Below, piece after piece: positions 4,661 to 22,694 of a stretch of DNA of 29,202 nucleotides. How positions within the stretch are numbered: the stretch's first letter is position 1; every line of letters starts with the position of its first letter. The stretch lies in assembly GCF_006345805.1 (NCBI RefSeq), contig NW_021833140.1, positions 1 through 29,202 of the forward strand, read 5' to 3'. The position numbers and the translations under genes are program-made. The notes under the pieces are model-generated. The model was not told the origin of the DNA. It saw only the letters and a program-made list of their open reading frames with translations, and did no database searches. The stretch comes from Octopus sinensis (lineage: Eukaryota).

Positions 4661-4873
4661 GATTCGGTGAATTTAGAAATTGTGAACAAAGGATATAGGA
4701 CACCATTGCTTGAAGCTGTTTCGGACGGTCACCTCGGAATAATGCAGCGGCTGATAGCCAGGGGCACGAATGTAAATGTTGTCGAACATGGAGGAAATAA
4801 TTGCCTGCATCTGGCGTTAAAAAGAGAAAACAACTTTCATTCTGAGGTGGAGCACATGACCATGTTAGATCAG
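4661..4873 (+). CDS. Exon: ankyrin repeats (DSVNLEIVNKGYRTPLLEAVSDGHLGIMQRLIARGTNVNVVEHGGNNCLHLALKRENNFHSEVEHMTMLDQ)
   Basis: ctccacaaag|GAT acceptor, CAG|gtaagt donor, 213 nt, open frame, ankyrin consensus TPLLEAV..GH and NCLHLA. Confidence 0.9.
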
Positions 4874-4929
4874 GTAAGTTTTCACATTGTTTGTGACTGT
4901 GTGTGTGTGTGTGTGTGCATTTGTGCGTC

Positions 4930-21300: not shown

Positions 21301-22694
21301 CATCAAAAGACCAGAGTTAGGGTCTTCTTGAAGCCATTAGGGATTGGGTTATTGTGTTTGAATGTGTAATTGCAATTATATTGCCATATTGGATGACTTG
21401 ACAACATGACATATGTTTGTAAATGCTTCAGTAAAAACAGACTTAGTGTAGGGGGACACAGCCAAATCATATCATATTCCCCACATCCAAAAAGAGAGAA
21501 TGAATTTAAGGAAATTTGACAGAAAATGATATTCACAAGTGAAGCCAGACCATGGCTGGTCTCTCTCTCACTGAGACATAAGAATAACTGAATGGGTTCA
21601 GGAGAATTGATTGAATCTGGAGTAGATTTCAAAAAAAAGATGAATTTGACTGAGAATAATCGACTGTTGTCTATCATTATTCATTGATTTTCAGTGTCAT
21701 TTTGGGAACTTTGCAAGGTGATTGATTTCACAGAGAGACATTACTTTCATGACCCTTGAATATCAGATCTGAAATCTGCCAGATTAAGACAGATATATGG
21801 GATTCTCTGAAGGGTCTCTGGAGTAAGTTGCCCAATAGGATGTATAGTTCAGAGATCTGCGAGTCTCTCCAGGTTGAGCCACTTCTTCACATCTCTGGTA
21901 CCTAGGACATGTGATCAGAATGTCGCAGGAATGAATTACAAGACAGGTTCTCAAAGTCAAACCAATGGAGTAGGAGACCCAGGGGTAGACCAAGCACTAA
22001 TAGTTGGATGATATATTAGACTTAGTTGTTGATGCTTGGGAATCCAACCAAAATATGTAATGATGGTACATCTGATAGGCCCCAATGGAAGAAATGCCAG
22101 GGGACTCTATCCCCACAACTCTCCCAGAAATATTGAGCAGAGGAAATGAATGGATCAAATGGTTTGCCTGTTGGTACCCTATGTTGATTCTTTAGGTTCT
22201 CATACACTTTTGCCTTCACCAAACACATCTGCCATCGGTTTACCTTAAAAGATTCTCAAGTGAAACTTTAATTAATTTTTTAAAAAAATCTCATTAATTT
22301 AACCACTTTGTTATTTTTCTCATCATCCTAGAAATAGAAAAACAATGTCTTATAATTTCTTGTTCTTAGCTATTTTTTTATTTCTCTCTTGAAATAGTTT
22401 CTTGTTACTTTATAAAACACACATCTTTTATATTATTGTTATATTGTTGATGTTGTTGCATTTATTTCTTATTGTTGGGTCTTTTGCCAGCAATTTTTTT
22501 AGGAGTTGATACAAACTAAACTGAAAATTGATGATGAGTCTATTGACGGCTGTAAAACAAGGCTACCTGATGCTTTACGAATGGTACAAGGAATTGCGAC
22601 CCAGAAAACACGGACACACGCAACATTACGTGCGCTCTTGAAGAAGCTGAATGTGTCGCTGCGATGGGAATGTCTGTCATTAGACGCAAAGTGA
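4661..22694 (+). CDS. Spliced gene, 5' part outside window: ankyrin-repeat / RING E3 ligase (Mind bomb 2-like) with C-terminal Death domain; exons 4661-4873, 8369-8546, 11305-11352, 12522-12664, 14545-14595, 17854-17923, 20936-21008, 22491-22694; apparent frameshifts in four exons
   Basis: Exons bounded by pyrimidine-rich AG acceptors and GT donors. Phases chain 0-0-2-2-1-1-1-1 once single-base indels are corrected. Ankyrin (TPLxxA..GH), RING (CxxC..PCxH..CxxC..CPxCR) and Death-domain motifs are recognisable in order. Confidence 0.8.
4898..4986. repeat. (TG)n microsatellite
   Basis: Direct reading. Confidence 0.9.
5424..5750 (-). mobile_element. Non-autonomous Helitron fragment (3' end)
   Basis: The - strand ends cccgggcaatgccggg (hairpin), short spacer, CTAG|T. 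The 5' limit is approximate. Confidence 0.7.
6004..6605 (-). mobile_element. RTE-clade LINE 3' fragment, related to 1696-3580
   Basis: (CAT)n tail, shared gtccttcctaatgc UTR motif, and GGGRPRKTCNNVVRKD C-terminal motif. Confidence 0.85.
6980..7364 (+). mobile_element. Probable non-autonomous Helitron
   Basis: A|TC start (tctatagacag), degenerate subterminal hairpin cctgaacaaggccggg, CTAA (CTRR) end. Confidence 0.5.
7365..7864 (+). mobile_element. Non-autonomous Helitron abutting the previous one
   Basis: TC start (tctatcaaatg), hairpin cccacgcgtagagcggg about 10 nt before CTAG|T. Confidence 0.65.
8369..8546 (+). CDS. Exon: last ankyrin repeat (FCVELKLGNEERCSGVVVASYLAHHGANFYCKNKN/GRTPLDLIEKENLKKTL/NVIPTNA), two apparent +1 insertions
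   Basis: atttgtag|TTC acceptor and gtaagt donor at 8547. GRTPLDL appears in the +1 frame after aattggc (~8474). A second +1 shift (~8525) is needed to give the phase-2 end that matches the next exon. Confidence 0.8.
8985..9180. repeat. (TA)n-rich tract flanking the Tc1 element
   Basis: Direct reading. Confidence 0.9.
9181..10671 (+). mobile_element. Tc1-family DNA transposon relic with about 200-bp IR/DR-type terminal inverted repeats
   Basis: 9181-~9375 is the reverse complement of ~10460-10662; right end ...ttccccccgtg|TA; left TIR lacks its outermost ~9 bp; inserted in TA tracts. Confidence 0.93.
9528..10444 (+). pseudogene. Disrupted Tc1 DDE transposase
   Basis: MAKSKELT..., FWENVLWTDETKIELFG, degenerate QDNDPKH, PSLSPDLNPIENLW and GYATKY*; in-frame stops, frameshifts and internal deletions. 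Confidence 0.92.
10770..10953 (-). mobile_element. Penelope-like terminal remnant containing a hammerhead-like motif
   Basis: Short unique island between TA/CA tracts carrying the motif at 10829-10870. Confidence 0.55.
10829..10870 (-). ncRNA. Minimal type I hammerhead ribozyme-like motif (core variant CUGUAGA)
   Basis: cttt CTGTAGA a gagc-gaag-gctc GAAA cg TA aaag: stem I cttt/aaag, 4-bp stem II, palindromic ACGU stem III. Confidence 0.55.
11305..11352 (+). CDS. 48-nt symmetric phase-2 micro-exon (HDGGRRMDQALKGPIR)
   Basis: tatttattccacag| acceptor and AG|gtagtt donor; length is a multiple of 3; open in the phase that joins the RING exon (AG|A = Arg). Confidence 0.6.
11881..12121 (-). mobile_element. 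RTE-clade LINE 3' fragment
   Basis: FRWAGHIARLTDNLWT...WYPREWKRPPGRPPRRW motif; GC-rich island between microsatellites. Confidence 0.88.
12522..12664 (+). CDS. Exon: C3HC4 RING finger, MIB/IAP type (CVFCEDEVATETFFPCKHLSLCKKCCPPKIPKRCPMCRQNITSKNSL)
   Basis: ttcctcag| acceptor, G|gtaaga donor; all eight zinc ligands present with zf-C3HC4_3 spacing. Confidence 0.9.
13550..14093 (+). mobile_element. Penelope-like (pseudo-LTR) remnant with about 126-bp inverted arms (13550-13676 and 13925-14050) and a hammerhead motif
   Basis: Arms are near-perfect reverse complements; inserted in a TAGA/TA tract; a short further copy of the arm end lies at ~25910-25945. Confidence 0.75.
13885..13929 (+). ncRNA. 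Minimal type I hammerhead ribozyme motif (one core change, GAAA to GGAA)
   Basis: ggacca CTGATGA g gtcac-aggagt-gtgac GGAA g-aa-c TC|tggcc: stem I, core, 5-bp stem II, minimal stem III and NUH site are all in order. Confidence 0.7.
14545..14595 (+). CDS. 51-nt phase-1 linker exon (VGPNSSKMEVQMVAGPV)
   Basis: atttttcag| acceptor, G|gtgagt donor, open frame, symmetric phase 1; flanks homologous to those of the next two exons. Confidence 0.7.
14621..14904 (-). mobile_element. tRNA-derived SINE (second family; head at ~14845) within an insertion flanked by tgtacctaa direct repeats
   Basis: The - strand reads ggaggcgcacggcttaatggttaggg (A box) and ggtttcgattcc (B box); 9-bp repeat at 14612-14620 and 14905-14913. 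Confidence 0.75.
15289..15707 (+). mobile_element. tRNA-derived SINE, near full length
   Basis: A box (tgtgtggtaag), B box (ggttcattccc), internal TA/TG tract, gtaaaaga tail; aligns with 19276, 25341 and 25958. Confidence 0.92.
16052..16264 (-). mobile_element. tRNA-derived SINE (third family), diverged
   Basis: The - strand reads gcggggaactggcagaatcgttagc...gagttcgaattc; homologous to 28707-29012. Confidence 0.8.
17641..17832. mobile_element. 192-nt insertion with 13-bp target-site duplication (probable truncated retroelement 3' end)
   Basis: accttgaaatatc at 17628-17640 and 17833-17845; insertion absent from the other two cassette copies. Confidence 0.7.
17854..17923 (+). CDS. Linker exon (VPKFEDKGV/SDAQLLGATSKQG), 70 nt, apparently two bases short of a 72-nt phase-1 exon
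   Basis: ctctttcag| acceptor, G|gtgagt donor, same position in the repeated cassette as 14545 and 20936; frame needs two single-base corrections. Confidence 0.55.
18690..20370 (+). mobile_element. Heavily decayed non-LTR retrotransposon RT region, Hero/NeSL-like, interrupted by a SINE
   Basis: KSAPGGDGV, DQVNAYRSV and FTTDSHRLETGIAVGCTISVILFVLVMEM, plus degenerate DDITT; the GCTISV.LF motif is typical of Hero-type RTs. Confidence 0.7.
19276..19683 (+). mobile_element. tRNA-derived SINE, full length, nested in the LINE RT
   Basis: ggcgtaggagtggctgtgtgg A box, ggttcagtccc B box, aaaagagt tail. Confidence 0.93.
20936..21008 (+). CDS. Exon: Death domain N-terminal part (SPQLKEKDLLRV/AKRLGRDWWQV), one apparent +1 insertion
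   Basis: atttcag| acceptor, G|gtgagt donor; L..VA..LG.DW motif appears after removing one T in gtggtctaag (~20975). Confidence 0.75.
21770..22165 (+). mobile_element. Decayed RTE-like LINE 3' fragment
   Basis: Degenerate WYLGHVIRMS...RQVLKVKP...RPRGRP motif on +. Confidence 0.65.
22491..22694 (+). CDS. Terminal coding exon: rest of Death domain (AIFLGVDT/TKLKIDDESID/AVKQGYLMLYEWYK/NCDPE/TRTHATLRA/ALEEAECVAAM/ECLSLDAK*), about six single-base indels
   Basis: cttttgccag| acceptor, TGA at 22692-22694; Death-domain motifs LG, Q.Y.ML..W and T...L..AL are distributed over three frames. Confidence 0.75.

Follow-up and report, generated by a model that had tools for sequence, protein, structure and literature searches.

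Ankyrin-RING-Death genes of Octopus related to Mind bomb 2: a candidate family of variable intracellular sensors

The Mind bomb proteins MIB1 and MIB2 carry an N-terminal MIB_HERC2/ZZ/REP module and a distinctive ankyrin region that runs directly into a first RING (RING1), and they end with a coiled coil and a catalytic last RING. In the experiments reported for human MIB1, ubiquitin is transferred only by the coiled coil and RING3, whose residues P993 and R996 touch the E2 enzyme; a fragment from the ankyrins to RING2 did not ubiquitinate itself with UbcH5B and was mostly monomeric, the ANK-RING1 part was dispensable, and RING1 and RING2 together were mildly inhibitory (bioRxiv 10.1101/2024.03.01.582834). 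Ubiquitylation of cFLIP by MIB2 is described as requiring the second RING and not the first (PMC7815719), and RING activity as being tuned by a linchpin residue (PMC12326332). Here we analysed a window of DNA from Octopus sinensis, the entire unplaced contig G000:C9611 (29,202 bases), which carries ankyrin, RING and Death-domain exons. These exons make up the 3' portion of a single member of a gene family that has expanded in Octopus, and there is, in our judgement, about an even chance that the products of this family act as variable intracellular sensors.

Paralog proteins such as P0007 and P0020 placed eight exons on the + strand within 4661-22694 (tblastn). They encode two ankyrin segments, a C3HC4 RING that is complete, a pair of linker cassettes and a Death domain split over two exons, together with a 48-nt mini-exon that is present in some gene models and absent from others (Table 1). 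An AG acceptor precedes each of the eight exons and a GT donor follows all seven internal ones. Pfam confirmed ankyrin exon A and the intact RING that had been noticed in a sequence-only reading of the window. Ankyrin exon A is 94-98% identical to P0005, P0007, P0014 and P0020. On the paralog contig C11894, the next upstream ankyrin exon lies ~4.3 kb further out than the start of our contig; the gene is evidently truncated at its 5' end by the contig end, with the 5' ankyrin exons beyond it. The sequence-only reading had missed this truncation, the three small exons and three indels in ankyrin exon B. NCBI annotates two proteins on the contig (98 and 88 aa), named ‘RING finger protein B-like’ and ‘DIAP2-like’, which match the RING exon at 100%. 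The NCBI model P0002 consists of the mini-exon, RING, linker 1 and Death exon 1, and stops at the first frameshift.

Table 1. Parts of the gene in the window, and arrays of related retrocopies elsewhere in the genome
Feature	Position	Strand	Support
Intron remnant	1..4660	+	matches the corresponding intron of paralog contig C11894 in colinear order, starting at base 1 (92-95%)
Ankyrin exon A (penultimate repeats), open, phase 0-0	4661..4873	+	Pfam Ank E 3.8e-7
Ankyrin exon B (last, capping repeat), phase 0-2	8369..8546	+	alignment with 11 paralog exons; homologous MIB2 exon
Optional 48-nt mini-exon before the RING, phase 2-2	11305..11352	+	tblastn of P0007/P0020; AG/GT
C3HC4 RING exon, phase 2-1	12522..12664	+	Pfam zf-C3HC4_3 E 7.7e-10, 38.9 bits (cut-off 27)
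Linker cassette 1, 51 nt, phase 1-1	14545..14595	+	paralog mapping; similarity to Death exon 1
Linker cassette 2, 70 nt here, phase 1-1, optional	17854..17923	+	in frame in P0184/P0020; paralog DNA
Death domain exon 1 (helices 1-2), phase 1-1	20936..21008	+	paralog mapping
Death domain exon 2 (helices 3-6) with stop codon	22491..22694	+	paralog mapping; fold of paralog P0007
Retrocopy arrays, units of ~3-3.6 kb, 9 and at least 6 units	G000:C1 41.735-41.763 Mb and 107.08-107.10 Mb		

Two octopus loci encode MIB_HERC2 domains followed by ankyrins and RINGs. From their architecture, we take the locus on C26 (two RINGs) to be MIB2 and that on C13, of which only the first and last RING were recovered, to be MIB1. 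Exon A (44-56% identity), exon B and the RING exon of the family match the MIB2 gene. Five exon boundaries are common to both in position and phase: the two that flank A, the two that flank B and the one on the 3' side of the RING exon. Because these introns are shared, we conclude that the family descends from MIB2. All 37 family RINGs compared match MIB2 RING1 best (scores 89-157, versus 39-84 for the MIB2 last RING) and rank it above the MIB1 RINGs; a 43-column RING tree of weak resolution groups them with MIB2 RING1 with support of 91/94. The ankyrin domain of MIB1 (8v0e) is the best natural sequence match for P0024 and has the highest query TM-score for the P0191 model among the listed structures. 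By exon structure and RING affinity, the family combines a Death domain with two pieces of Mind bomb 2, its ankyrin region and its first RING, and the attachment point of the Death module maps to the phase-1 intron after RING1.

The arrangement in which a MIB-type ankyrin region is followed directly by RING1 is thus common to Mind bomb and the octopus family, and the rest of the protein differs. Neither the MIB_HERC2-ZZ-MIB_HERC2 (MZM) module nor REP was found in the full-length relatives P0191, P0146, P0026, P0023 and P0203, which begin with ankyrins (the corresponding end of the window copy lies off the contig). Each of the eight full-length models checked has one RING. Linker cassettes and the Death domain stand where Mind bomb has its coiled coil and catalytic last RING. 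Mind bomb 2 is a single-copy gene, whereas the octopus family has dozens of copies with a hypervariable ankyrin face. In its way of working the octopus family would resemble known proteins that pair a repeat sensor with a Death fold, but judged by the modules that define Mind bomb it is not a member of that family. Elsewhere, arthropod clusters of ~400 aa with ankyrins and a RING, named ‘mib1-like’ in the Atlas, suggest a separate truncation of MIB.

Other described proteins share parts of this architecture. ANKDD1A and ANKDD1B have an ankyrin array and a C-terminal Death domain (feature look-alike score 0.92) and presumably no RING; the octopus family differs in having a RING between the two and ankyrins that trace to MIB2. 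The molluscan IAPs are likewise a lineage-expanded combination of RING and Death domains, with BIR repeats in place of ankyrins, a C-terminal RING and a different ancestry. According to a survey of ten molluscs, the IAPs expanded in oyster combine Death and RING domains, and IAPs are least expanded in Octopus (PMC8917759).

The sequence-only reading proposed that the ankyrin, RING and Death exons form a single gene, and three lines of evidence agree with it. The first is the existence of intact relatives. Pfam Ank, RING and Death matches above the cut-offs occur together in the single proteins P0005, P0009, P0019, P0021, P0022, P0026 and P0203, and intact members are found in O. sinensis, O. 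vulgaris (P0191, P0021) and O. bimaculoides (P0146). Of these, P0191 and P0146 are full-length relatives of the window subtype. The second is the splicing of the Death exons. A GT..AG joint between Death exons 1 and 2 is present in read runs X2 and X13, with a matching joint in X1; no such joint was found in X19. We guess the first three runs to be RNA and X19 to be DNA. In X13, a loose end upstream of Death exon 1 corresponds to the 3' end of linker 1, and the splice from RING to linker rests on NCBI models and retrocopies. These retrocopies are the third line. They are intronless and join ankyrin exons A and B, a RING remnant, a linker and both Death exons. Those on C1 are decayed, riddled with stops and derived from a more distant subfamily; their structure identifies the C1 arrays as a processed pseudogene of an Ank-RING-Death mRNA that was later amplified in tandem.

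A Death domain had been predicted for this gene after frame repair. The unrepaired frame has no Pfam Death match; the repaired C-terminus, spread over two exons, is essentially that of the intact paralog P0007. The profile check proposed at the time, which expected Ank, zf-C3HC4_3 and Death, returned the first two, whereas Pfam Death (PF00531) scored paralogs of the window subtype at 17.2 bits (P0007) and 17.6 bits (P0014), under the gathering cut-off of 22.6. P0191 and P0146 had no Death match at E<=0.01. Sister subtypes exceed the cut-off with 27.6-43.9 bits, and a gap of two residues near helix 3 is the only interruption in their alignment with the window subtype. The folded model of P0007 has a predicted local distance difference test score (pLDDT) mostly of 79-89 across the Death part. 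Its residues 189-274 superimpose on the FADD Death domain with Z 12.0 and a root mean square deviation of 2.1 over 85 aligned residues, and comparisons with FADD, p84, RAIDD, ankyrin-G and RIPK1 give Z 10.6-12.0. Death domains fill the top rows of the structure ranking, over CARD, PYD and DED; Foldseek also lists Death domains, weakly (best E 0.012). The predicted Death fold is therefore supported on the near-identical paralog P0007. The Death-domain adaptors FADD, RAIDD/CRADD, RIPK1, TRADD and the ankyrin Death domain share this fold and are tied (Z 9-12), with ~17-24% identity to most; the octopus family has no DED, CARD or kinase. A ‘RIPK1-like’ label was considered and dropped, RIPK1 being one among several tied folds.

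Among 10 genomic Death loci, sequence scores point to no clear donor of the Death domain. The two best candidates, a CARD-Death gene (35.3 bits) and another Death exon (34.3 bits), are tied, versus 76.4 bits for a family member. The tandem Death matches on C1 were rejected as the donor gene, being decayed retrocopies. On C14, L200:975-1652 and L201:1105-1755 are neighbouring single-exon CARD-Death genes of RAIDD-like architecture and are candidate adaptors. Linker cassettes 1 and 2 resemble Death exon 1 (z of 10.7 and 17.4 against shuffles, compared with at most 4.8 for other exon pairs); by this likeness they are diverged copies of it. Since their phase is 1-1, leaving out a cassette preserves the reading frame; P0006, P0007 and P0184 are examples.

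The window copy itself contains twelve 1-bp coding indels in four exons: three in ankyrin exon B, two in linker 2 (which is two bases short), one in Death exon 1 and six in Death exon 2. These could mean that the copy is a pseudogene, or that the contig is redundant and error-rich, in a family whose growth by segmental duplication has been largely neutral. In favour of this, the contig is short and unplaced, its introns are 92-97% like those of paralogs, the decayed retrocopy arrays show that the family spawns dead copies, and no read set can be assigned to this exact copy. The pattern of the indels argues for another origin. Compared with four paralog contigs, private 1-bp indels number 14 at 8-10 kb and 74 at 17-23 kb, with only 1 at 2-8 kb and 3 at 10-17 kb. 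These blocks also span introns, are unaccompanied by blocks of private substitutions, and 23 of 29 private insertions lengthen a homopolymer. In Death exon 2, the indels (five insertions and one deletion) are the sole difference from the two nearest paralogs, with no coding substitutions, and the frame is open in 18 of 19 paralog exons. Contigs from all four read runs contradict all seven Death-exon indels, including the surplus base at 20975 in exon 1. As the indels lie in error-rich blocks of the contig and those in the Death exons are contradicted by all four read sets, the twelve are most likely assembly errors; the pattern is what we would expect of a poorly polished long-read consensus. 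A pseudogene would accumulate disabling changes along with substitutions, which is not what this copy displays, and O. vulgaris and O. bimaculoides have intact genes of this subtype. Together with the site-specific selection described below, this makes decay with neutral expansion improbable, and the window copy itself may be intact. Separately, positions 8001-10000 and 17001-23000 of the window are likely low-coverage long-read consensus, which truncates the NCBI models of the contig.

The copy belongs to a large family, as the sequence-only reading had supposed. The O. sinensis genome contains at least 95 RING matches, canonical MIB2 included. Among the 95 listed, 49 have a Death exon on the same strand within 30 kb downstream, none has one upstream, and two have one on the opposite strand. 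The Death-exon-2 set behind this count comprised 121 matches from 150 listed, the other 29 being first-exon matches that were left out. On chromosome-scale contigs, 17 of 33 RING matches have a downstream Death exon, mostly on C27 and C29. The proposal of a lineage-specific cephalopod fusion holds for three Octopus species, by searches that reach close relatives only. No member outside Octopus was found in searches too weak to exclude one: word-based searches gave 30/30 and 14 matches among 706 candidates, all from Octopus, and 4/504 among longer proteins, with no canonical MIB. In a profile search of 1.84 billion representatives, long ankyrin proteins dominated, and the best 150 matches included 2 from the family (P0026, P0146). 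The Atlas, which holds clusters of at least 50 only, has no Ank-RING-Death cluster. As the sequence-only reading supposed, such genes are named ‘MIB2-like’ in databases, where ‘RING finger protein B-like’ and ‘DIAP2-like’ are also used. No published description of the family was found by title or the start of the abstract in the open-access literature, supplements excluded; papers on octopus genomes may include the expansion in their tables of gene families. Architectural variants also occur: P0003, P0023 and P0020 have no Death domain at the end (P0003 and P0023 have a serine-rich tail instead), the P0031 model has ankyrins and two Death segments without a RING, and P0203 has up to 12 ankyrin motifs.

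The stronger clue to function, which the sequence-only reading missed, is the rapidly evolving ankyrin surface apparent in codon comparisons. We compared the upstream ankyrin exon of paralogs from 29 loci (27 unique sequences, 50 codons). Model M2a was favoured over M1a (2dL 74.5), with omega of 4.5 on 25% of sites, and nine sites with posterior above 0.9 fall in the hairpin and first helix. At ten pre-chosen surface positions, which we selected from what we take to be the design of designed ankyrin repeat proteins (DARPins), omega was 2.5 compared with 0.9 elsewhere (p 2e-5); the variable sites presumably overlap the positions randomised in DARPins. A tree-free estimate of nucleotide divergence gave 0.23 for surface codons, 0.385 for two helix-1 codons and 0.058 elsewhere, against 0.05 at fourfold sites and 0.035 in flanking introns. 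These values place the upstream ankyrin exon of the paralogs under diversifying selection at predicted binding-surface residues. NLRs with ANK, TPR or LRR sensors and TRIMs also combine a repeat surface under diversifying selection with a signalling module. In contrast to them, no NACHT/NB-ARC, B-box or SPRY domain was found in any scanned family member.

Several points weigh against reading the window as part of a variable sensor. The selected exon belongs to paralogs and lies outside the window, and exon A, which lies inside, has no positive selection (omega 0.53, p 0.38; 16 sequences, with 2 of 24 loci dropped). Weaker signals occur in two other exons, ankyrin exon B (p 0.014) and Death exon 2 (p 2e-4, 1 of 19 dropped), so that fast change extends past the sensor end. 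In the variable exon, even the framework evolves almost neutrally (omega 0.9). The RING set of six sequences was uninformative. Gene conversion can inflate likelihood tests such as these, the codon-model code is our own and was run without validation by simulation, and assembly errors may contribute. The Death domain of the window subtype is divergent by its profile score, below the Pfam cut-off and two residues shorter around helix 3. Short, unplaced contigs carry many of the copies, some of which may represent redundant haplotypes. That the runs are RNA is only a guess, and paralogs or a sister species may be the source of the contigs built from them.

The role of the RING is less clear. The sequence-only reading had proposed an E3 ubiquitin ligase coupled directly to Death-fold signalosomes, a claim that is partly undercut by the descent of the RING from MIB2 RING1, the homologue of a RING that is reported as inactive in human MIB1 with UbcH5B and dispensable in MIB2 (PMC7815719). 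The label ‘E3 ligase’ is unproven because this is the RING that was kept and the catalytic last RING has been lost, as seen in the full-length relatives. The family could nevertheless consist of active TRIM-like ligases, the reading nearest to that earlier proposal. The variable ankyrins would then choose what the RING ubiquitinates, and the Death domain would serve chiefly to cluster the proteins in place of the MIB coiled coil. The window RING has all eight zinc ligands (C3HC4, spacing 11/3/8), and the eight ligands are kept in all 42 family RINGs with the full pattern (50 loci were examined, and 8 are without it). The window copy and an O. bimaculoides-like clade also have Pro after Cys7 and the linchpin Arg, the E2-contacting positions in MIB1 RING3, where the parent octopus MIB2 RING1 has Ile and Lys. 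However, both residues occur in only 18 of the 42 RINGs and near-identical paralogs differ at them, unlike an essential catalytic surface. This variation of the E2-facing motif, seen at L001-L010 and L078-L117, hints at a mix of active and inactive RING copies. We lean slightly against the RING of the window subtype being active as a ligase, and regard a family of TRIM-like ligases as possible and on balance unlikely. The RING in the folded models has pLDDT of about 35-63 and was not used.

Alternatively, the proteins could be decoys or dampers, ligase-dead MIB2 fragments whose divergent Death domain caps Death assemblies or which compete with MIB2, diversified by conflict within the host and not by pathogens. 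The dispensable ANK-RING1 part and mildly inhibitory RING1 and RING2 of human MIB1 (bioRxiv 10.1101/2024.03.01.582834), the divergent Death domain of the window subtype and the relatives that end without a Death domain (P0003, P0023 and P0020) are consistent with such a role. The diversifying selection seen on the ankyrin face is better explained by changing ligands than by a single conserved partner in the host, and we consider decoys quite unlikely.

A sensor remains our preferred reading, and its immune or apoptotic role is inferred from the architecture and selection. Each copy would use its ankyrin groove to bind a ligand of its own, one that changes fast and most likely comes from a pathogen. 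Ligand binding would cluster the Ank-RING-Death proteins, and the clustered Death domain would recruit adaptors with Death domains of their own, setting off caspase or NF-kB signalling. The linker that bears the Death domain would vary in length with the optional phase 1-1 cassettes. The RING would play an accessory part and be active in some copies and inactive in others; the window copy has the canonical motif. In a bolder and rather doubtful version, octopuses would have a germline repertoire of dozens of DARPin-like intracellular receptors in which the once-silent RING1 has regained E2-activating residues in some clades and the Death domain takes the place of the coiled coil; bound ligand would then drive both ubiquitination and Death signalling.

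The remainder of the window contains traces of mobile elements. Fragments at 2000-3700 (-), 19851-20063 (+) and 27994-28521 (+) are decayed remains of reverse transcriptase resembling that of long interspersed nuclear elements (LINEs), with RVT_1 matches at 3334-3693 (E 2.9e-4) and 19851-20063 (E 0.043). The 176-aa frame at 27994, which we take to be LINE-like, has no Pfam match. Neither do the frames at 9852-10157 (+) and 27162-27476 (+), which presumably are remnants of a Tc1/mariner transposase and a Helitron/PIF1 helicase tail.

To our knowledge, little is known of how cephalopods recognise intracellular threats. A large family that combines a fast-evolving ankyrin face with a Death domain provides concrete, cloneable candidates for variable recognition. 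The family is also a natural test of whether the silent first RING of MIB can turn into an active ligase. If the bolder version of the sensor reading is true, the repertoire would constitute an NLR/TRIM-like immune layer made from a Notch-pathway ligase.

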